Under the pieces are notes generated by a model. The model saw nothing but the letters and a program-made list of their open reading frames with translations, did not search any database and had not been told where the DNA came from. A program made the position numbers and the translations under genes. A stretch of DNA of 64,000 nt from Candidatus Moraniibacteriota bacterium (GTDB lineage: Bacteria; Patescibacteriota; Minisyncoccia; Moranbacterales; UBA2206): assembly GCA_049297495.1 (NCBI GenBank), contig JBAQUL010000012.1:43616-107615 (forward strand). The letters run 5' to 3'. Below are positions 8,906-63,700 of this stretch, one piece after another; within the stretch, counting starts at the first letter, position 1; each line of letters starts with the position of its first letter.

Positions 8906-9041
8906 TGTATAGGGCCAATATATTGGAACAACACAGGTCGCTTTGTCTTTCTTAGCTAAGAAAGATGGAGCGGCCTGTTTTTACATTAAAGAATGCTTGA
9001 CAAAAAGCTAGGTTTAGTGTAGGCTGGACAGTTAATATAAT

Positions 9042-24080: not shown

Positions 24081-25472
24081 ATGGAATTAGATTTGAAAAA
24101 ATTGAAAAAAGTTTATGTAATTGGCATCAAGGGTTCTGGTGTTGTCGGTGTAGTGGAAATTCTCAGCTCTAAAGGAATCGAAGTGACAGGTTCGGATACG
24201 GCGGAAAAATTTTTTACGGATGAAGTTTTGCAAAAAAACAAAATTAAGTATTTCGAAAATTTTTCAATTGAAAATATTCCCAATGACGTTGATTTGGTGA
24301 TTTATTCCACCGTCTATAATGTGAAAAACAATGTTGAATTTCAAGAGGCTCTGAAAAGAAAATTGCCTATGCTTAGTTATCCTGAAATACTTGCTCAACT
24401 ATTCAATGTTAAATATGGTATTGCCATTTGCGGGACACATGGAAAAACGACTACCTCAGCTTGGCTGGCCAACACCTTGAAAGAACTTGGAGTGGATCCG
24501 ACGGCAGCAATTGGCAGTCGAGTGACAAATTGGGGTGGCAACGCACTGATTGGAGCGGGTGAATTTTTTGTGATGGAGGCGGATGAGTATCAAAATAAAT
24601 TAGCGCGCTATAATCCCAACGGTGTCATCCTCACGAGTTGTGACTATGACCATCCGGATTTTTTTCTTGATTTTGATTCGTATAAGCAGGTGTTTAAGGA
24701 TTTTGTGGCGCGTATTCCCAAAACTGGTTTTTTGGTTGTCTGTGGGGACGCAACGAACACATTGGAAGTCGCAAAATCAGCTACTTGTGCGGTTTTGACC
24801 TATGGCTTTTCTGCTGATTGTGATTATCAGATTTCTAATTTAGAATTGAAAAAGGAAAATGAATTGCATGTTCAATCGTTTGATGTCTTGCGGGGAGAAG
24901 ATGTTCTGGGTAGGTTTGAGATTGGGCTAGTAGGGAGGCATAACACATTAAATGCTCTTGCTGTGATTGCAGTTTGTCATCGGCTTAATTTTAGCGCGGA
25001 AAGAATCCAGGAGACGCTTAAATTATTTCGTGGAACATCGCGAAGGTTTGAATTTATCGGCTTGAGACATGGCGCAATTCTAATTGATGATTATGGTCAC
25101 CATCCAGATGAAATTCGTGCAACCTTGAAAGCCGCGCGCGAACTGTATGCGGAAAAAAATATTTGGGCGGTTTTTCATCCCCATACCTTTACGCGTACCA
25201 AAGCTTTGCTTTCTGAATTTTCACAAAGCTTTGCTGATGCGGACAAGGTGATTATTCTCGATATCTACGGCAGTGCGCGTGAGGCGCAAGGTGGAGTACA
25301 TTCGAAAGATCTCGTAGAGCTGGTTAATAAATACGACCGAGGAAAAGCGGAGCATATTGCCACGATTGATGAAGCGGTGGAATTTCTCAAGAATAAGATT
25401 GGCCCAGATGATGTGGTCATTGCCATTGGCGCAGGGAATGGTTGGGAGGTAGTTGAGAAATTAAAATTGTAG
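24081..25472 (+). CDS. murC: UDP-N-acetylmuramate--L-alanine ligase MurC
   Basis: VIGIKGSGVVGVVEIL...VTGSD N-terminus, ICGTHGKTTTSAWL P-loop, Mur ligase C-terminal domain; follows murG. Confidence 0.8.
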   Translation: MELDLKKLKKVYVIGIKGSGVVGVVEILSSKGIEVTGSDTAEKFFTDEVLQKNKIKYFENFSIENIPNDVDLVIYSTVYNVKNNVEFQEALKRKLPMLSYPEILAQLFNVKYGIAICGTHGKTTTSAWLANTLKELGVDPTAAIGSRVTNWGGNALIGAGEFFVMEADEYQNKLARYNPNGVILTSCDYDHPDFFLDFDSYKQVFKDFVARIPKTGFLVVCGDATNTLEVAKSATCAVLTYGFSADCDYQISNLELKKENELHVQSFDVLRGEDVLGRFEIGLVGRHNTLNALAVIAVCHRLNFSAERIQETLKLFRGTSRRFEFIGLRHGAILIDDYGHHPDEIRATLKAARELYAEKNIWAVFHPHTFTRTKALLSEFSQSFADADKVIILDIYGSAREAQGGVHSKDLVELVNKYDRGKAEHIATIDEAVEFLKNKIGPDDVVIAIGAGNGWEVVEKLKL

Positions 25473-25474
25473 AC

Positions 25475-25497
25475 ATTGAATGTCTACAATTTAGTGT
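25475..25497. repeat. Perfect 23-bp palindrome TTGTAGACATT-G-AATGTCTACAA carrying GTAG/CTAC, 10 bp upstream of the RAYT start (REP-like / subterminal hairpin; may also act as the murC terminator)
   Basis: Seen in sequence; 11-bp perfect arms; GTAG tetranucleotide as in REP/IS200 recognition hairpins. Confidence 0.6.
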
Positions 25498-25506
25498 AAT
25501 ATAGGT

Positions 25507-26172
25507 ATGCGTAAAACAGCATTTGCCAATGGTGAATATTATCATATTTATAATCGCGGGGTGGATAAGCGAGAGGTGTTTTTGTGTGATGGAGATTATA
25601 AACGATTTATTGTGGGGATGAATGAATTTAATTGTAGTAAGGCTATTGGTAGTTTGCGAGATAAGCGGGTACGTGAGAATCAGGAGTTGAGCTCCTGGAG
25701 CTCCAGGAGCTCAACTCCTGATTCTGTTCTACAGTCTTTAGTTCAAATTATCGCCTATTGTCTGAATTCAAATCATTATCACTTAATTCTGAGGCAAGTT
25801 AGCGAAAGGGGTATTGAAAAGTTCATGCACAAACTAAGTACTGGCTATACTAATTATTTCAATAAAAAATCTAATCGAACAGGCGCGCTTTTTCAAGGAC
25901 GCTACAAATCCATTCATATTAACTCCAATGAATATCTGTTGCATCTGTCGGTTTACGTAAACGCCAATCACGCGGTTCATAATTACGAAGAAAAAGACTG
26001 GCCATATTCTAGTTATTTAGATTATACTGGGAAGAGAACGGGAAAACTCTGTGAAAAAGTAACAATCTTGGGGCAGTTTGATGACAATCTACTGGAATAC
26101 GAAAAGTTTATGCGAAATAATACGAACTATTTTAGGGAGAAAAAGGAAATGGAGAAATATATTTTGGAATAG
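25507..26172 (+). CDS. HUH Y1 transposase of the COG1943 / REP-associated tyrosine transposase (RAYT, IS200-like TnpA) family
   Basis: GEYYHIYNRGVDKREVF...DYKRF (motif I), NHYHLIL (HUH), YFNKKSNRTGALFQGRYKSI...EYLLHLSVYVNANHAVHNYEEKDWPYSSY (catalytic Tyr region); contains an in-frame 16-codon palindromic insertion. Confidence 0.85.
   Translation: MRKTAFANGEYYHIYNRGVDKREVFLCDGDYKRFIVGMNEFNCSKAIGSLRDKRVRENQELSSWSSRSSTPDSVLQSLVQIIAYCLNSNHYHLILRQVSERGIEKFMHKLSTGYTNYFNKKSNRTGALFQGRYKSIHINSNEYLLHLSVYVNANHAVHNYEEKDWPYSSYLDYTGKRTGKLCEKVTILGQFDDNLLEYEKFMRNNTNYFREKKEMEKYILE
25677..25724. repeat. 48-bp perfect palindrome (gaatcaggagttgagctcctggag | ctccaggagctcaactcctgattc) inside the RAYT coding sequence, in frame (encodes NQELSSWSSRSSTPDS)
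   Basis: Seen in sequence; exact reverse complement of the two 24-nt arms. Confidence 0.9.
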
Positions 26173-26187
26173 TTTTGAAATAAAAAA

Positions 26188-28935
26188 ATGCTAGCAAAAA
26201 ACAAAAAAAATATCTACAATTTAACACCCGAAGAAGTCTTAAAAAAATTCGGTTCCAATCAGGATGGATTGAGTTTGGATGAAGCGAAAAGCAGACTAGC
26301 TGAGTTTGGGGAAAATAAGATTACTAGAAAGCAAAACTGGAAATGGTTGAAATTAATTCTCGCTCAGTTTAATGATGCGCTGGTGTGGATTTTGCTTGTG
26401 GCAGCGGGACTGGCTTTGGCTTTCGGGGAATATCGCGACGCGACAATTATTTCCATTATCGTTCTCTTGAATGCTACGGTTGGTTTTTTTCAGGAGTTCA
26501 AAGCGGACCGAGTTTTGGAAAGCATCAAAAAGCTAACAGCTAGTTATGCGCTCGTGTTTCGTTTGAGTGAGAAAAAACAGCTTGATACAAGGCTGGTCGT
26601 TCCCGGAGATATTGTTTTTATCGCGGCTGGCGATAGTATCGCGGCGGATGGGTACATTTTGGAAAGTTATGACTTAAAAGTCAATAGTTTTATCTTCACC
26701 GGAGAATCGAAACCAAAAAGGAAAGAATCAAAAATAATCCAGGATACTAGCGTGGCTTTTGCTGACATTGATAATATGGTGTTTATGGGGGAAACGGTGG
26801 CAACTGGCGAAGCAAGGTTCGTGGTGACGGGCACTGGAATGAACACGGAACTTGGGCGTATCGCACATCTTACGCAAGAAGTTGAAAATGATCTGACACC
26901 ACTTCAAAAACAAATGCGCACGCTTGGGCGTGATGTGACAATTCTTTCTGTTTTCATTGGCATCATTGTTCTTGTCGCCGGGCAATATTTCAAGATGTCT
27001 CTTTATCAGAATTTTCTATTTGCCTTAGCTCTTTCTGTCTCTGTGGTTCCCGAGGGATTGCCGGCGGCAATTTCTGTGGCACTGTCTTTTGGCATGAAGC
27101 GCCTAATCAAAGAAAATGTGTTGGCCAAGAAATTAAATGCTGTTGAGACTCTTGGTTCTGTTTCAATGATTTGTACGGATAAAACCGGTACAATTACGCG
27201 AAATGAACTGGCGGTAACGAAGATTGTGATTAATGGAGAGACTTTGGATTTGGACGGAGCAGGCTATGTTCCAGTTGGAAATTTTTATTATAAAAATGAA
27301 AAAATTGATCCGAAAGTCGTTTCTAATTTGGAGTTGCTATTTCGTATAGGAACACTTTGCAATGACGCGAGCCTCGTATATGACGAGAAAAGTTATAAAA
27401 TAATTGGCGATCCAACGGAAGGAGCGATTATCGTGGCGGGACAAAAATATAATAAGACAAAAAAGTTTTATGAGCGAGGGGAGAAAAAAATCAATGAAAA
27501 CCCATTTTCGTCAGAGCGGATGCGGATGAGTGTGGTGTACAAAAACTCAAAAACGATTTCCTATGTCAAAGGCTCACCAGATGTAATGATTGAGCTTTGT
27601 AACTTCATTAAGATTGGCGAGAGTATTTTGCCCTTCAACGAGGAGGAAAAAAGCAGAGCCAAGGCAATTTACAATCAGATGTCAGGAGATGCTTTGAGAG
27701 TGTTGGCGTTTGCTTATCGCGACTTGGATGGATTTTCGGAAAATAAATATTTAGCGGAAGCGGAAAAAGGGTTGGTTTGGGTGGGAATGATGGCAATGAT
27801 TGACCCGCCACGTGCCAATGTGGGTAGTGCAATTGCCGAATGTCGTAATCTTGGAATTAGCGTTGTTATGATTACGGGGGATTATGAAATAACAGCCAGA
27901 GCGATTGCGGAAAATGTGGGACTTGTTGGTAAAAAAGAGGCAAAAAGCAGTTTGGTTATAAACGGGAAAGAATTGGACATACTCAAAGATAGGGAGCTAT
28001 ATCAAAAGATTAAAAACGGTGTTTGTGTTTTTGCGCGGATTGCACCGGAACAGAAATTGCGGATTGCGACGGTACTCAAAAGGAACGGTGAGGTGATCGC
28101 TATGACAGGCGATGGTGTAAATGATGCACCAGCCCTCAAAAAAGCTGATATTGGTGTGGCCATGGGAGTTATTGGCACAGACGTCTCGAAGGAAGCAGCA
28201 AGCATGATTCTTTTGGATGACAATTTTGCTTCAATTGTAAAAGGCGTGAGAGTTGGTCGAACAATTTTTCAAAATCTCAAAAAATTTGTGCACTATGTTT
28301 TCACCTCTAACGCTAGTGAATTATTTGTAGTAATTTTGGGCGTGCTTTTGCAAATTCCTTCTCCAATTTCAGCTGTGCAAATTTTGGCAGTTGACTTGGG
28401 GACAGATATCTTTCCCTCTTTTGCGCTTGGGCTTGAGCCAGAAGAACCGGGCGCAGCCAAGACAGAATTGAATTCTAGGCGAAGCATCATGAGCTTTGGT
28501 GGCTTTCGCAGAATTATTTATTTAGGAATTATTATGGCAACAGGTGCGGTCGTCGCATTTCTTTGGTCGATGCTTCGTGGGGGATGGCAATTCGGTGAGA
28601 GTTTTTCGGTGGACAGTATCTTGTATCTCAAATCAACTACAGCGGCTTATGCCGTTCTCTCAATGACACAAATGGCAAATCTTTTGCAAGCACGCAGTGA
28701 AACGCTCTCGCCCTTTCAGCTTGGATTTTTTAGGAATAAATACGCGATTGGAGCAATCGGGGTATCTTTGATAATTTTATTATTATTCATGTATTTGCCT
28801 TTCTGTCAGCAATATCTGCGGATGTTGCCGATTGATGGGTATGATTGGTTGGTAGTTTTGGGCTCATTTTTGGCGGTGTTTTTCTGGGAAGAAATGCGTA
28901 AGGAGGATGTCCGGAAAGGCGAAAAATCAGCTTGA
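26188..28935 (+). CDS. P-type cation-transporting ATPase, type II (Ca2+/Mg2+ SERCA/PMCA-like)
   Basis: 915 aa; TGES, PEGLPA, DKTGTIT, TGDGVNDAPALKKADIGVAMG motifs; 10 TM topology. Confidence 0.85.
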   Translation: MLAKNKKNIYNLTPEEVLKKFGSNQDGLSLDEAKSRLAEFGENKITRKQNWKWLKLILAQFNDALVWILLVAAGLALAFGEYRDATIISIIVLLNATVGFFQEFKADRVLESIKKLTASYALVFRLSEKKQLDTRLVVPGDIVFIAAGDSIAADGYILESYDLKVNSFIFTGESKPKRKESKIIQDTSVAFADIDNMVFMGETVATGEARFVVTGTGMNTELGRIAHLTQEVENDLTPLQKQMRTLGRDVTILSVFIGIIVLVAGQYFKMSLYQNFLFALALSVSVVPEGLPAAISVALSFGMKRLIKENVLAKKLNAVETLGSVSMICTDKTGTITRNELAVTKIVINGETLDLDGAGYVPVGNFYYKNEKIDPKVVSNLELLFRIGTLCNDASLVYDEKSYKIIGDPTEGAIIVAGQKYNKTKKFYERGEKKINENPFSSERMRMSVVYKNSKTISYVKGSPDVMIELCNFIKIGESILPFNEEEKSRAKAIYNQMSGDALRVLAFAYRDLDGFSENKYLAEAEKGLVWVGMMAMIDPPRANVGSAIAECRNLGISVVMITGDYEITARAIAENVGLVGKKEAKSSLVINGKELDILKDRELYQKIKNGVCVFARIAPEQKLRIATVLKRNGEVIAMTGDGVNDAPALKKADIGVAMGVIGTDVSKEAASMILLDDNFASIVKGVRVGRTIFQNLKKFVHYVFTSNASELFVVILGVLLQIPSPISAVQILAVDLGTDIFPSFALGLEPEEPGAAKTELNSRRSIMSFGGFRRIIYLGIIMATGAVVAFLWSMLRGGWQFGESFSVDSILYLKSTTAAYAVLSMTQMANLLQARSETLSPFQLGFFRNKYAIGAIGVSLIILLLFMYLPFCQQYLRMLPIDGYDWLVVLGSFLAVFFWEEMRKEDVRKGEKSA

Positions 28936-28998: not shown

Positions 28999-29385
28999 AT
29001 GCAAGGTACAGCAAGCGTCATCCTGAGCATCTTGGTTGTTGTAATAGTAATTTTGCTTTTTAAAGGGGGGAAATCTAATTATAATAAGGCGAATAATTTT
29101 TTAAAGTTATTAAAAGAAAAAGATTTTGAAAAATGGAAAGAACTTGGCGAGCCGAGGATAATGTTAATCATGCCAAATGCAATCATTACAAACAAGGGTC
29201 CTTATATAAGTGATATTCGGGCGTATGTTAAATATGCTAATTTTGGGGATTTCTCTGATCAAGAATTGAAAATTGCCCTTGAGGATGTCCGAAACGTTTT
29301 TTCCATTAAACCTTTTGATCTTATTGCAGTGATTGCTATTTATGCCATATTTATAGGAGCGCTTGTTTACGCGACATTATTTTAA
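28999..29385 (+). CDS. Small two-TM membrane protein, hypothetical (overlaps murB start by 23 nt)
   Basis: 128 aa; hydrophobic N- and C-terminal helices. Confidence 0.35.
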   Translation: MQGTASVILSILVVVIVILLFKGGKSNYNKANNFLKLLKEKDFEKWKELGEPRIMLIMPNAIITNKGPYISDIRAYVKYANFGDFSDQELKIALEDVRNVFSIKPFDLIAVIAIYAIFIGALVYATLF

Positions 29386-30379
29386 TATTATGTTAACTAT
29401 CCAAAAAAATATTCCCTTGGCACCACTGACCACTTTTAAAATTGGCGGACCGGCAAAGTTTTTTTGTGTGGCAAAAGATAAAAGCGAGCTGTTGGAAGCA
29501 CTGGATTTCGCTAAAGAAAATAAATTGGAAATTTTTATGCTTGGCGGGGGCAGTAATGTTTTATTTAGCGACAAAGGTTTTGATGGGTTAGTTATAAAAA
29601 TGCAATCATCAGAAGTCAGTGAACCCTCCTTCGCTAAAGCTACAGCGGGCAAGCAAGATGCTAAAATTGAATGTTGGGCGGGAGAAAGTTTGGCGAGCGT
29701 CGTTAATTTTACTAAGGAAAATAGTCTTATGGGAATGGAATGGGCGGTGGGGATTCCGGGAACAGTTGGTGGGGCGGTGCGGGGTAATGCTGGAGCTCCC
29801 TGGGGGTGTATGGCAGATAGTATTGAAAGCGTACGTGGGATAAATTTAGAAAATCAAGAAAGTATTGATTATTCTCGCGAAGATTGCAAATTTAGTTATC
29901 GTGATTCTGTTTTCAAGAAAGATAAGAATTTATTAATTTTATCTTGTATATTAAAAATGCAAAAAGGTGAGCGAGATATGATTGAAAAAAGAATGCAAGA
30001 AATTTCCAAAACCCGTTCAGATAATCAGCCAAAAGGTCTTAGCTCTGGTAGTTTTTTTCAAAATCCGGTTGTGAGTGATAAGAATCTTATTGCTGAATTT
30101 GAAAAAGATACAGGAAAAAAGATAGAAGAGAACAAGAGTCTCTATAAGCAAGAAAGAGGTGAAATTAAGCTTCCTGCTGGCTGGCTGATTGAAGAAGCTG
30201 GGTTTAAAGGAAAAAAAATTGGCGGAGTGATGGTGAGCGAGAAACATGCTAACTTTTTCATCAATGATGGAACGGGCACTGCAGAGGATGTTGTAATTCT
30301 TGCCGGAATAATCAAGCAGAAGATACGAGAAGAATTTGATACTCAAATTAAGGAGGAAATTATTTATGTCGGATTTTAG
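29363..30379 (+). CDS. murB: UDP-N-acetylenolpyruvoylglucosamine reductase MurB
   Basis: LAPLTTFKIGGPAKFF...MLGGGSNVLF FAD-binding domain motifs; long C-terminal domain. Confidence 0.8.
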   Translation: MFTRHYFNIMLTIQKNIPLAPLTTFKIGGPAKFFCVAKDKSELLEALDFAKENKLEIFMLGGGSNVLFSDKGFDGLVIKMQSSEVSEPSFAKATAGKQDAKIECWAGESLASVVNFTKENSLMGMEWAVGIPGTVGGAVRGNAGAPWGCMADSIESVRGINLENQESIDYSREDCKFSYRDSVFKKDKNLLILSCILKMQKGERDMIEKRMQEISKTRSDNQPKGLSSGSFFQNPVVSDKNLIAEFEKDTGKKIEENKSLYKQERGEIKLPAGWLIEEAGFKGKKIGGVMVSEKHANFFINDGTGTAEDVVILAGIIKQKIREEFDTQIKEEIIYVGF

Positions 30380-57564: not shown

Positions 57565-58620
57565 CTAAAGAATTGGGTGAAGAATTTTGAGAATGGTTGA
57601 TGTGAGATAATCACTGATTTTCATCTTATATCTCTTTGGTTCAAATTTTGTGGAATGCTTTTTCCAGCTAATTATGACTTGCTCCAATTCTTGGAGCAAT
57701 TTTTTTTCGCGGAAAAAAACTCCTACTTCTGCGTTGAGTTCAAAAGAAAGCATGTCCATATTTTGCGATCCAATCAGGCCCTCGGCCTTATCGATAATAA
57801 GTAATTTTGAATGGTTCATGGTTTTTGGTAAGAAAAATTTTATGCCCAATGGATGCAGGATATGCATGTAGCGATAATTCAGGAGATCCATGATGGGCCA
57901 GTCTACTTTCTTGGGAACAAGAATTTCCACTGTGACTCCTCGTCTTATTGCATCATCCAAAAGAGAAATCAACCAACGTGGCGGCGTGAAATAGGGCGTG
58001 GCAATTTGAATGCACTCTTTTGCTCCGGAAATTTTTTCAATATAGTGCTTTTTAAGGGTGTAGATATTTCTTGTCGGCCAATGTTCGAGGAGCCAAAACT
58101 TTAGCTTGCTCGTGAATTTTTTTTGGTGGTAGTGAAGAATCTTTTCATTTTTTCCGCCGGCCATCGTATAGGTATAGGCGAAAGATTGGAGAAGACTCTT
58201 TACAACTCTGCCTCGCAGTTCCAGCTGGAGGTCATTCCAATTTTTAAAGCGCTTGCCAATGTTTACTCCGCCAATAAAAGCGATTTTTTCATCGACAATT
58301 AGGATTTTGCGATGGATATGACGAAGCCAGTGACTGAAAAAGATGAATTCTATACCTGATTTTGTGATTGTTTTTGCTATCTCTTCCTTGAGGAGTTTAC
58401 TGCCGAAGGCGTCGGCAACAATTACGACGCGCACGCCCCTTTTGGCTTTAGCTCTCAGTTTTCCGATGAAATTATGGCTTCTTTTGGTGTCATCAAGAAA
58501 GATATACATTTCGATGTAGATGGATTTTTGGGCGCTATCGATGGCACTAAGCATTGCATCCCAAGCTTTTAGTGATGTTGTATGAAGGCGATATTTCATT
58601 TTGCAAAAAAAGAATTTCAA
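57565..58620 (-). CDS. Phospholipase D-family protein with two HKD motifs (cardiolipin-synthase/PLD-like)
   Basis: HRKILIVDEKIAFIGGVN and HSKLLIIDKAEGLIGSQN HxKxxxxD motifs. Confidence 0.75.
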   Translation of the reverse strand: MKFFFCKMKYRLHTTSLKAWDAMLSAIDSAQKSIYIEMYIFLDDTKRSHNFIGKLRAKAKRGVRVVIVADAFGSKLLKEEIAKTITKSGIEFIFFSHWLRHIHRKILIVDEKIAFIGGVNIGKRFKNWNDLQLELRGRVVKSLLQSFAYTYTMAGGKNEKILHYHQKKFTSKLKFWLLEHWPTRNIYTLKKHYIEKISGAKECIQIATPYFTPPRWLISLLDDAIRRGVTVEILVPKKVDWPIMDLLNYRYMHILHPLGIKFFLPKTMNHSKLLIIDKAEGLIGSQNMDMLSFELNAEVGVFFREKKLLQELEQVIISWKKHSTKFEPKRYKMKISDYLTSTILKILHPIL

Positions 58621-58743: not shown

Positions 58744-60642
58744 TTGTGTAAAAAAGATAAGAGTATGAATAATCAGGGCAAAACTAGTTGGCTCTCACTT
58801 TCAGTATTTGGAAAAGATGTATACCTTTTTTTTGTAAAAGATGATTTGAAAAGTGGACCAATTGAAATTCTGAAAAGTTCAAATGGCATAGACTTTAGCC
58901 ATGTGAACCAAAGAATGATTTTCAAAAATAAAATATTCGGCCTAGGAAACAAATTTGATATTGAAAAAGGTTTCAAGATATCGAAAATAAAGGATGGATA
59001 TTTTCTCTCCTACCAGAAGCTGGGAAAAATCTTGGGAGCAATATCCCAAGATGGTCTGTGTTGGAAAAAAATAGGCATAACTGAAAATATTAAGAACTGT
59101 GGCCTAGTGATTGAAACGAGTGTTCCCTCAGAAGAGTATCTTATGTTTTTCGGCGAGCGCCAAGTGCGCGTTGCGACCTCAAGCGATTTAGTTAGGTGGG
59201 ACATCAAGCGTTCCGCTTTTTTGCATACGCGCGATGGTTATTTCGATAGCCAATCGCTTTCGGTGGTGAGTGTTTTTTCTTCACAAGAAGGGATGGTTTT
59301 GCTTTATACAGCGATAGATACGGCCTATAAGTTGAGTTTGGGGGCTGCAATTATCGATAAAACGGATTATCGCAAAATATTGTGGCGTTCGAAGCGACCT
59401 ATCTGGACGCAGCCGAGAGAATGGAAAGGTGGCGAGATAAATTTTGTGGGAAGTTATTATCAGGGGAAAAGACTGCTCGTGTATTGGGATTTTTGTGGAG
59501 AGCTTAAGGCTGTTTCAATCGCCAATACCTGGACAGTTTCGAGTCGCGCAAAAAGTGCGAAGAAAAAAATTCCAAAGCTTCAAAAATTGCCCAAATTGCC
59601 GAAAGCGTTAAAGTTGCAGGAATTTTCCAGTCAGCTTGAACTTGCAAAGCATGAAAACAATCCTATTATCGGACCAATTGAGGAGCATGCTTGGGAATCT
59701 CGCGAAACGTTCAATCCAGCGGCGGTTTATCTTAAGGGAAAGGTTCATTTGCTCTATCGTGCTTTGGGAGAAAAAGGCATATCGGTATTGGGCTATGCGG
59801 CAAGTGAGGATGGGATTAATATTGACGAGAGATTGAAGAAGCCTGTTTATGCTCCAATGCAACCATTTGAGTATGGTGGCACAAAAAAAGCTAACCACTG
59901 CTATCCCTATAGCTCGGGAGGGAGTTGGAGTGGTTGTGAAGACCCGCGCCTTTCCGTTATTGGAAGGCGGATATATATGACCTATGTGGCTTTTAATGGA
60001 TCTTGTCCACCAGGCGTTGCGTTGACATCGATTAGTGTCAAAGATTTCCTGGCTAAAAATTGGAATTGGAAAATTCCCAAGCTCATTTCGAAACCAGGCG
60101 AAATTCAGAAAAATTGGGTAGTTTTCCCGGAAAAAATAAACGGTAAATTTGCTATTTTACATAGTATCTCTCCGAGTGTGTCAATCGATTATTTCGATTC
60201 GCTAGATGATAAAAAAATTACAATTGAAAGTTATCATAACAACAAATCGGATGATACGCGTTGGGATAATATTTTGCGTGGCGTTGGATCGCCACCAATT
60301 AAAACAGACTATGGCTGGCTGGTTTTTTATCACGCCATGGATAGGCGCGACCCTAATCGCTATAAGGTTGGTGCGATGATTTTAGACTATCAAAATCCAG
60401 AGAAGATTCTCCATCGTTCTTCGCAACCAATTTTGGAGCCGGTTGAGAAATATGAAAATGAAGGCTCAAAATCCGGTGTTGTTTATGTTTGCGGATCAAT
60501 CGTGAAAGACGAAAAAATTTATGTTTACTATGGTGGTGCAGATAGATTTACTTGCGTGGCAACGGCATCGGTGCAAGAGTTTCTTTTGGCGCTTATTAAT
60601 TCATCAAAAACCACTCCTTTTATCAGATTGGCTGTGGCATAA
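58744..60642 (+). CDS. Protein with two tandem GH130-like (DUF377, beta-propeller glycoside phosphorylase/hydrolase family) domains; N-terminal copy degenerate
   Basis: C-terminal half has FNPAAV...LLYRA and GCEDPRL motifs of GH130; low-complexity PKLQKLPKLPKALKL linker between halves. Confidence 0.6.
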   Translation: MCKKDKSMNNQGKTSWLSLSVFGKDVYLFFVKDDLKSGPIEILKSSNGIDFSHVNQRMIFKNKIFGLGNKFDIEKGFKISKIKDGYFLSYQKLGKILGAISQDGLCWKKIGITENIKNCGLVIETSVPSEEYLMFFGERQVRVATSSDLVRWDIKRSAFLHTRDGYFDSQSLSVVSVFSSQEGMVLLYTAIDTAYKLSLGAAIIDKTDYRKILWRSKRPIWTQPREWKGGEINFVGSYYQGKRLLVYWDFCGELKAVSIANTWTVSSRAKSAKKKIPKLQKLPKLPKALKLQEFSSQLELAKHENNPIIGPIEEHAWESRETFNPAAVYLKGKVHLLYRALGEKGISVLGYAASEDGINIDERLKKPVYAPMQPFEYGGTKKANHCYPYSSGGSWSGCEDPRLSVIGRRIYMTYVAFNGSCPPGVALTSISVKDFLAKNWNWKIPKLISKPGEIQKNWVVFPEKINGKFAILHSISPSVSIDYFDSLDDKKITIESYHNNKSDDTRWDNILRGVGSPPIKTDYGWLVFYHAMDRRDPNRYKVGAMILDYQNPEKILHRSSQPILEPVEKYENEGSKSGVVYVCGSIVKDEKIYVYYGGADRFTCVATASVQEFLLALINSSKTTPFIRLAVA

Positions 60643-63658: not shown

Positions 63659-63700
63659 AAAGACCATTCCACCCGCATGCGGATGAAATGGTCTTTTCTA
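63659..63700. terminator. Bidirectional terminator hairpin (aagaccatt ... ccgcatgcgg ... aatggtctttt) between convergent genes
   Basis: Seen in sequence; nested perfect palindrome ccgcatgcgg. Confidence 0.6.

Follow-up and report, generated by a model that had tools for sequence, protein, structure and literature searches.

The closest described counterparts of the locus reported here are the systems formed by repetitive extragenic palindromes (REPs), their doublets (REPINs), and the REP-associated tyrosine transposases (RAYTs), such as E. coli TnpA-REP (4ER8) and the RAYTs of Pseudomonas and Stenotrophomonas. RAYT genes are flanked on both sides by their own REPs, whose palindromy is preserved by complementary changes (Nunvar et al. 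2010, PMC2817692), and they occur at low copy number and are inherited vertically (Bertels 2017, PMC5581495). Palindromes also occur inside genes: intragenic GTAG/CGTC REPs and Rickettsia palindromic elements (RPEs) are in-frame repeats, present as singlets or dimers, that encode about 10–30 residues and are tolerated, chiefly in genes for repair, replication, and further housekeeping functions, while transposase genes in that survey carry only flanking repeats overlapping their ends (Di Nocera et al. 2013, PMC3733652). Here, we describe a RAYT-like gene in a 64,000-nt stretch of DNA from Candidatus Moraniibacteriota bacterium (GCA_049297495.1, contig JBAQUL010000012.1, positions 43,616 to 107,615 of the forward strand; hereafter the window), which carries a 50-bp perfect palindrome in frame within its own coding sequence. 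We put at roughly 0.58 the probability that the gene contains, in this palindrome, a copy of its own enzyme's REP/REPIN-type DNA hairpin.

The encoded protein has the same Y1 HUH (histidine-hydrophobic-histidine) fold as the REP/REPIN-RAYT enzymes, and in relatives its gene is likewise flanked by short, GC-rich, paralogue-specific palindromes, which occur as singlets and inverted doublets, are dispersed, and keep their palindromy through complementary changes. Unlike in those systems, one copy lies inside the coding sequence of the enzyme itself, in frame and at a conserved position; the protein scores far under the RAYT cutoff, carries a clade insert of ~35 aa, and comes from Patescibacteria hosts; and no dispersed family is visible in the 64-kb window. 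Canonical REPs combine a GT(A/G)G head with an imperfect palindrome, whereas the present hairpins are perfect, with neither bulge nor fixed head, and GTAG is found solely in a hairpin flanking the window's gene and not in the internal palindrome. Hairpins inside the gene of an HUH enzyme have precedents in initiators such as phiX174 gene A and pT181 repC, which hold the origin hairpin or nick site within their own gene; those are phage and plasmid origins with a defined nick site, whereas the present gene is chromosomal and syntenic (murC-gene-ATPase). As with RPEs and intragenic REPs, copies in relatives lie within murB, gatB, and an ELP3-like gene, and the window copy is in frame in a loop modelled at a predicted local distance difference test (pLDDT) score below 50, while the transposase genes of PMC3733652 include no internal copy that is conserved at one loop clade-wide and matched to the flanks. 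Long perfect in-frame coding inverted repeats of up to 284 bp are known from Nematomorpha mitochondrial genes, which differ from the present case in being animal mitochondrial, much longer, and associated with neither an HUH enzyme nor a dispersed repeat family (PMC6649704). In the literature searched, with subscription journals outside its coverage, we found no description of a RAYT or REPIN in Candidate Phyla Radiation (CPR) bacteria, Patescibacteria, or Parcubacteria, or of REPs within RAYT genes. The locus is best filed with the known REP/RAYT systems, its new feature being that the cognate REPIN-type hairpin lies in frame within the RAYT-like gene.

The palindrome occupies positions 25676–25725 (no strand is assigned to it or to the hairpins below), where a repeat search of the window found two arms (25676–25700 and 25701–25725) of 25 nt each, 100% complementary and with a spacer of 0 nt; an earlier note on this DNA had placed a perfect 48-bp palindrome at 25677–25724, which is real and reaches one base further in each arm. 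As that note also held, the element is in frame and lies between motif I and the HUH motif: within the open reading frame (ORF; 25507–26172, +) it supplies codons E57–S73, after motif I (YYHIYNRG, residues 11–18) and 49 nt before the codons of the HUH motif (H90-Y91-H92; 25774–25782, +). It is the sole long perfect palindrome of the window, and its 25-nt arm has no further match there at up to three mismatches and any match in 0 of 100 shuffles, in line with the earlier view that such a palindrome is rarely kept by chance. Folded as single-stranded DNA, the sequence is predicted to form the long hairpin (−28.6 kcal/mol, z = −9.9), and the corresponding RNA fold reaches −47.8 kcal/mol (z = −8.6). 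Internally, the palindrome is a doublet, in which unit 1 (CAGGAG-TTGAG-CTCCTG, 25681–25697; 6-bp stem and 5-nt loop) and its inverted copy, unit 2 (CAGGAG-CTCAA-CTCCTG, 25704–25720), are separated by a central GAGCTC spacer (25698–25703) that is itself palindromic, such that the two inverted units can form one long hairpin, as REPIN-type doublets do. The repeat unit (CAGGAGTTGAGCTCCTG) is similar to singlet units of relatives, e.g., ATCGGAG-TTGAG-CTCCGAT at L014, one of the loci compared below. GAGCTC occurs three times within the palindrome (25689, 25698, and 25707) with a 9-nt period (GAGCTCCTG GAGCTCCAG GAGCTC; peptide SSW-SSR-SS), and this period suggests that slippage of a 9-mer complementary to itself may have contributed to the growth of the doublet.

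A perfect palindrome in an assembled contig could also be a fold-back chimera of assembly or amplification, and palindromes of this family can indeed trouble assembly: at L006 (586–1263), the centre of a 26-bp-arm palindrome at the same site is filled with NN, which indicates that assemblers or scaffolders have difficulty at these elements. The identical 50 bp in an independent JGI metagenome contig (L161) shows that the window palindrome is no such product: every palindrome column is invariant between the two, while the surrounding gene differs by ~5% (mean column identity of the alignment 95%; proteins 90% identical), and gene order is the same (murG-murC-RAYT-like gene-P-type ATPase). Moreover, perfect variants occupy the same site in >100 independent assemblies with the reading frame kept. 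At the level of independent assemblies, this origin is refuted, and we give it practically no weight. At L081, whose protein is 81% identical in amino acids to that of the window, the palindrome is present in a perfect 23+23 version.

To place the palindrome among its relatives, we drew on a protein search that returned 3,633 relatives, of which 35 were aligned and the best belong to Candidatus Moranbacteria and further Patescibacteria, and on 162 loci (80 from GTDB genomes, 80 from metagenomes, and 2 from exact protein look-up), in which two motifs located 137 genes, 121 of them distinct. Nine of these loci (L024, L032, L039, L043, L047, L049, L050, L054, and L056) are third-party annotation (TPA) records of metagenome-assembled genomes titled Bdellovibrionales, Gammaproteobacteria, Saccharibacteria, or Woesearchaeota that hold a CPR-type gene with hairpins, and are probably mislabelled bins. 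All 35 aligned homologues carry a segment of similar length at the palindrome position, which is the most variable part of the protein, and several of the variable peptides (e.g., GGSTSIMEVEPP, GSKSPIGLLEP, and KVQPLASQRLNL) look like palindromes translated in frame. The proposal that the palindrome adds a 16-residue insertion (NQELSSWSSRSSTPDS, residues 58–73) where relatives are shorter thus needs to be recast: close homologues are of similar length there, while relative to the generic Y1_Tnp profile the clade does have an insert of ~35 aa (residues 43–77), of which the palindrome codes about half. Had homologues carried this segment without a DNA palindrome, it could have been read as ancestral protein sequence; we found the opposite, as almost every homologue has a palindrome in this segment, although the palindrome sequences are unrelated to one another.

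In the stretch of 105 nt that ends at the HUH motif (site A), the perfect stem has a median length of 15 bp and reaches at least 10 bp in 96 and at least 20 bp in 34 of the 121 distinct genes, while 393 other windows of the same genes gave a median of 5 bp with only three reaching 10 bp, and stems of at least 9 bp were present in 49 of 60 real genes vs 57 of 1200 codon-shuffled ones. A second position (site B) lies ~229–256 nt after the HUH motif, just past the YVNxNH tyrosine motif (~10 codons after the tyrosine), and carries no hairpin in the window's gene. An AT-rich palindrome of 9–10 bp ((G)TGAATAAAAATAATTTTATTCA(C)), ~204 nt after the HUH motif in L006, L025, L118, and L129–L132, had inflated our first site-B counts and was left out of them; as a REP-like hairpin it was rejected, since it simply codes the conserved peptide VNKNNFIH. 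Perfect hairpins or palindromes, with stems of 7–26 bp, were thereby found at site A and/or site B in 117 of the 121 distinct Patescibacteria genes (site A alone in 86, site B alone in 5, and both in 26, with the remaining 4 genes having neither), site A being occupied in 112 (93%) across proteins down to ~45% identity, and the stems average 52% GC vs 34% for the genes.

It is the pairing that is conserved at site A, and not the sequence. When 60 distinct long palindromes of site A were compared, all four Watson-Crick pair types were represented at every one of the 14 innermost stem positions, and arms paired with their own partners at 100% but at only 30% once the partners were shuffled among genes (no more than 37% in any of 1000 permutations). 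Three substitutions in the left arm separate the window from L081, each mirrored in the right arm, so that both palindromes are perfect. These data bear directly on whether selection might act on the protein, favoring a flexible Ser-rich loop with the DNA palindrome incidental, a reading for which one could cite that the segment is a surface loop in the structural model and Ser-rich in several relatives. Yet relatives share no similarity in these peptides and palindromy of the DNA in every case, the patterns RAKL...ELSS and GGSTSIMEVEPP are the exact product of an in-frame palindrome, and the same DNA recurs in non-coding flanks; the covariation effectively refutes this reading, which we regard as highly improbable. 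Hairpin similarity was 0.87 between genes with 85–95% core protein identity and 0.64 at 75–85%, against a background of 0.56, and lay at background when core protein identity was below ~80%. By this comparison of sequences, the hairpin is replaced much faster than the protein changes, with palindromy always kept.

What the hairpins are is apparent from the gene flanks. In most relatives, the internal hairpin has the same sequence as hairpins lying 10–50 nt before the start codon and 5–40 nt after the stop codon: for 69 of 97 genes, 11-mers of the internal hairpin reappeared no more than 150 nt from a gene end (control segments, at most 3 of 97), on both sides in 42 of the 97, and, for the short-stem class, in the flanks of all 36 genes. 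Genes with hairpins at both A and B have the same sequence at the two sites, sometimes inverted (loops TCG/CGA in L028 and CCC/GGG in L038). In eight cases in which a genome or contig has two paralogues, each gene has its own hairpin type, and the internal hairpin matched the gene's own flanks for 15 of the 16 genes (the exception, L001, has no flanking copy) and essentially never those of the other paralogue. Both single units and perfect inverted doublets are found, within genes as well as between them, with extragenic doublets upstream of the gene in L004 (21+21) and downstream in L008 (19+19) and L066 (16+16), and relatives have further dispersed copies, several per 20-kb locus. These dispersed copies were counted with hairpin verification; a count of far copies against control k-mers (58 vs 64) was not used, as the controls matched paralogous genes and low-complexity DNA. 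These features are the hallmark of a RAYT gene with its REP/REPIN repeats (Nunvar et al. 2010; Bertels 2017), with the addition of a copy inside the coding sequence of the enzyme.

Some of the dispersed copies are themselves within genes, with 16 of 40 lying at least 30 aa inside long ORFs, an RPE-like behaviour in Patescibacteria. In-frame copies of the palindrome of the neighbouring RAYT-like gene were seen in murB (L026:11898–12851; peptide KVQPLVSQRLNLRK), in an ELP3-like radical SAM gene (L013:7282–8946, − strand; peptide NGGSTSIMEVEPP), and in gatB (L033:14470–15912; peptide ELGNSVSK...LETEFPSG, twice), such that one element is present in several unrelated genes, as for RPEs, in L026, L013, and L033 and not within the 64 kb of the window. 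In MurB, the surface loop into which the L026 palindrome falls is also variable in length, with a longer insert in L001, and the window's own MurB (29363–30379) has two other short inserts, SEPSFAKATAGKQDA and NKSLYKQERGE.

Several features of the hairpins further bear on whether they act as RNA or as DNA. The alternative that the 25-bp stem works in the mRNA, throttling translation or triggering RNase III-type cleavage so as to limit a potentially toxic nuclease, can draw on the very stable RNA fold given above, on the documented mRNA-level effects of classical REPs (PMC3733652), and on the hairpin upstream of the gene in L161, whose changes relative to the window all give G:T wobbles on the sense strand. 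Yet the 145 distinct internal hairpins contain neither a G:U wobble nor a bulge: their stems are perfect, end abruptly without wobble or mismatch extensions, and hold a single mismatch in total (T:T). Loops are 0–1 nt, with symmetry running into the very centre, which would bring no gain for an RNA loop; stem lengths range from 7 to 26 bp; both loop orientations are found at the same site; and the same hairpins lie in intergenic DNA and in other genes. Copies upstream of the gene, at A, at B, and downstream have no fixed orientation relative to one another, alternation being frequent and not universal, and the Rfam matches were all below threshold and to generic hairpin models such as those of miRNA precursors. 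We had also considered the ratio of G:T to A:C mismatches as a discriminator between RNA and DNA, which proved uninformative because the stems are essentially free of mismatches, so that the absence of wobble is kept only as weak evidence. Altogether, the lack of wobble, the symmetry through the centre, and the two loop orientations at one site favor action at the DNA level, and we consider an mRNA regulatory hairpin quite improbable. Of the three origins suggested in the earlier note, the cis-regulatory RNA hairpin is accordingly the less supported, while an inserted hairpin element and a substrate-type hairpin are nearest to the evidence, given that identical hairpins lie beside the genes of relatives and at dispersed positions around them.

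The enzyme to which the hairpins would belong was characterized from its ORF, a Pfam match, a structural model, and fold comparison. The 221-aa protein matches Y1_Tnp (PF01797) at 30.5 bits against a cutoff of 23 over residues 79–153, and scores 28 bits against the curated RAYT equivalog model REP_Tyr_transpos (NF047646), under its cutoff of 80. In an alignment of 36 homologues, H90, H92, and Y150 are invariant, as expected of an HUH metal-binding motif and a conserved tyrosine on the following helix; the Y150 codon (25954–25956, +) lies in the YVNxNH motif, and the catalytic roles are presumed by analogy with RAYT and IS200 enzymes. Searches of the PDB with the protein sequence and with a profile gave no real match, which made a comparison of folds necessary. 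An AlphaFold2 model built on the 36 homologues (predicted TM-score, pTM, 0.80) places the HUH histidines at the start of a predicted strand (91–97) and has an IS200-like fold, with E. coli RAYT bound to REP (4ER8) as its top PDB match in Foldseek (E = 8.9e-6), followed by the IS608 and ISDra2 TnpA-DNA complexes. The fold match, the invariant residues, and the score below the RAYT cutoff together indicate that the protein, as modelled, is a distant RAYT-like member of the Y1 HUH enzymes that recognise single-stranded DNA hairpins and not a RAYT equivalog.

The model also suggests why a palindrome can reside in this gene. Its pLDDT falls below 50 only in residues 63–74, between helix 50–62 and strand 79–86 leading to the HUH motif, and the palindrome-encoded residues 57–73 overlap this sole low-confidence loop, while site B maps to the coil that follows the tyrosine helix. 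With residues 43–77 deleted, the Y1_Tnp match becomes contiguous (profile positions 7–120 of 121), and deletion of only the 17 palindrome-encoded residues does not restore contiguity, consistent with a clade insert larger than the palindrome. Given this poorly ordered loop within a clade insert, the protein seems, in the model, merely to tolerate whatever the palindrome encodes.

In copy number and inheritance, the gene behaves as RAYTs do and not as an insertion sequence. It is single in the window, with no paralogue there (some other genomes have two paralogues), and a position directly 3' of murC is common to the window, L161, L162, L001, L002, and L026, which points to vertical descent at one fixed locus, in agreement with the few copies and vertical inheritance reported for RAYTs (Bertels 2017). 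One copy at a chromosomal position conserved in relatives is unlike an IS200/IS605 element, a mobile unit with multiple near-identical copies and subterminal imperfect hairpins at either end, as are its flanks, which hold a perfect hairpin and a half copy and not the distinct left-end and right-end structures of that family.

In the window, these flanks consist of an upstream hairpin, AAATTGTAGACATT-G-AATGTCTACAATTT (25464–25492; 14-bp stem containing GTAG; the TTGTAGACATT hairpin), which overlaps the murC stop codon and lies 14 nt before the ATG, and of a downstream half copy, AATATCTACAATTT (26209–26222), which agrees with the 3' arm of that hairpin at 13 of 14 positions and lies 37 nt past the stop codon, within the first codons of the P-type ATPase ORF and 730 nt from the upstream hairpin. 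The two bracket the RAYT-like gene, the half copy being in direct orientation, and neither is of the internal type. The upstream hairpin is similar to the REP-type hairpin TTGTAGACGTC-G-GACGTCTACAA, which is both internal and flanking in L032. L161 has conserved both hairpin and half copy, albeit with degeneration of the full hairpin, which has three mismatched pairs that are all G:T or T:G on the + strand (alignment read by eye). No further copy of either hairpin type lies within the 64 kb, where neither dispersed REPs nor an extragenic REPIN population are therefore seen, and among the 162 loci the internal palindrome of the window was found solely at the orthologous site of L161; a scan of viral contigs gave no match to it. 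Within the available sequence, the window palindrome is thus a solitary internal copy that is still perfectly symmetric, and its assignment to a cognate hairpin family rests on positional homology with relatives. Overall, the window has nine perfect hairpins of at least 9 bp (mean 1.75 in shuffles), including two GC-richer ones within ORFs, ATCTTGGGA-GCAATA-TCCCAAGAT (59029–59052), which is similar to the ACTTGGGAG...CTCCCAAGT REP type of Parcubacteria relatives, and TTGCTCCAA-TTC-TTGGAGCAA (57679–57699), as well as imperfect zero-spacer inverted repeats at 8930–8981 (26 nt, 81%) and 63659–63696 (19 nt, 89%), unrelated in sequence to the palindrome.

This solitary state leads to the alternative that the palindrome is an inert passenger or relic, i.e., a REP- or RPE-like selfish palindrome that entered a tolerant loop long ago and no longer interacts with the enzyme, its symmetry kept by neutral, hairpin-templated quasi-palindrome correction at replication. 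Among the established mutation mechanisms of bacteria is the correction of quasi-palindromes by template switching, and the disorder modelled for the encoded loop fits such a passenger. A number of observations likewise weigh against a gene-internal cognate hairpin. First, no second copy of the internal palindrome was present in the available flanks of the window, L161, L081–L085, L106, L001, or L002, and the hairpin that does flank the window's gene is unrelated to it in sequence. Second, the same elements are tolerated in frame in the housekeeping genes murB, gatB, and ELP3-like of relatives, such that toleration alone can place elements in genes. Third, the palindrome can harm its gene: at L162 (2950–3015), which is syntenic with the window, the site-A palindrome has 10 bp duplicated in tandem right at its centre (TTTCCGAGAG x2); this duplication splits the RAYT-like gene into ORFs of 76 and 151 aa, with the same product on three contigs, and represents either a palindrome-associated frameshift (a pseudogene) or a sequencing error. 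Fourth, a rule that each gene keeps at least one hairpin is unsupported, as about seven genes with neither site filled are expected if A and B are occupied independently and four were observed. Finally, the protein lies far under the NCBIfam RAYT cutoff, and E. coli RAYT, the one member studied structurally, needs a bulged, imperfect hairpin with a 5' GTAG (PMC3479197), while the window palindrome has neither.

Against a passenger stand the occupancy of the same loop across 93% of distinct genes over a wide range of protein identity, the match of internal copies to their own flanks together with their difference between paralogues of one genome, and the replacement of hairpin sequences faster than the protein diverges, yet always with perfect stems. 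The own-flank match and the paralogue differences require ongoing homogenisation or co-selection, and a copy that stays perfect and flank-matched while it is being replaced does not behave as an old independent relic. We therefore consider an inert passenger unlikely, and favor a gene-internal copy of the enzyme's own hairpin.

Under this preferred reading, the gene would encode a RAYT-like Y1 HUH single-stranded DNA nuclease/transferase of a clade widespread in Patescibacteria, with the hairpin held in a fixed permissive loop before the HUH strand (site A) and sometimes also in a second loop after the catalytic-tyrosine helix (site B). The window copy would represent the doublet form around GAGCTC, able to fold as one 25-bp hairpin on either strand, and would act as DNA, its own enzyme recognising it in the form of a cruciform or a single-strand hairpin, while the protein would merely tolerate the 17 encoded residues as a disordered loop. 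The internal copy may then be a live family member, a linked 'home' copy matched to the specificity of the enzyme, with the symmetry of its arms possibly kept by enzyme-mediated replacement or hairpin-templated correction. Its role could be that of a linked master copy, of an autoregulatory site, or nothing at all. A more far-reaching proposal, which we put forward tentatively and would sooner doubt than accept, is that across this Patescibacteria-wide clade the gene of the enzyme cannot do without its cognate hairpin, a functional element that the encoded protein would bind or process ('substrate-in-gene') and that serves as a master copy that seeds and homogenises the flanking and dispersed copies, including the in-frame ones in housekeeping genes, and/or as an autoregulatory site. 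If true, such an arrangement would explain the fast co-diversification of enzyme and hairpin.

The interest of these findings lies in the clade-wide pattern rather than in a single palindrome. REP/REPIN-RAYT systems are among the most abundant repeat systems of bacteria, and in this clade enzyme and repeat are physically coupled, which would provide natural enzyme-substrate pairs for biochemistry, with the candidate substrate readable from the gene, and a handle on how specificity co-evolves. The pattern would also extend REP/RAYT biology to the ultra-small CPR bacteria, in whose housekeeping proteins the in-frame palindromes parallel the RPEs of Rickettsia, another lineage with reduced genomes. 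Such palindromes would further explain hypervariable low-complexity loops in CPR proteins, as well as some of the assembly gaps and frameshifts encountered in their genomes.

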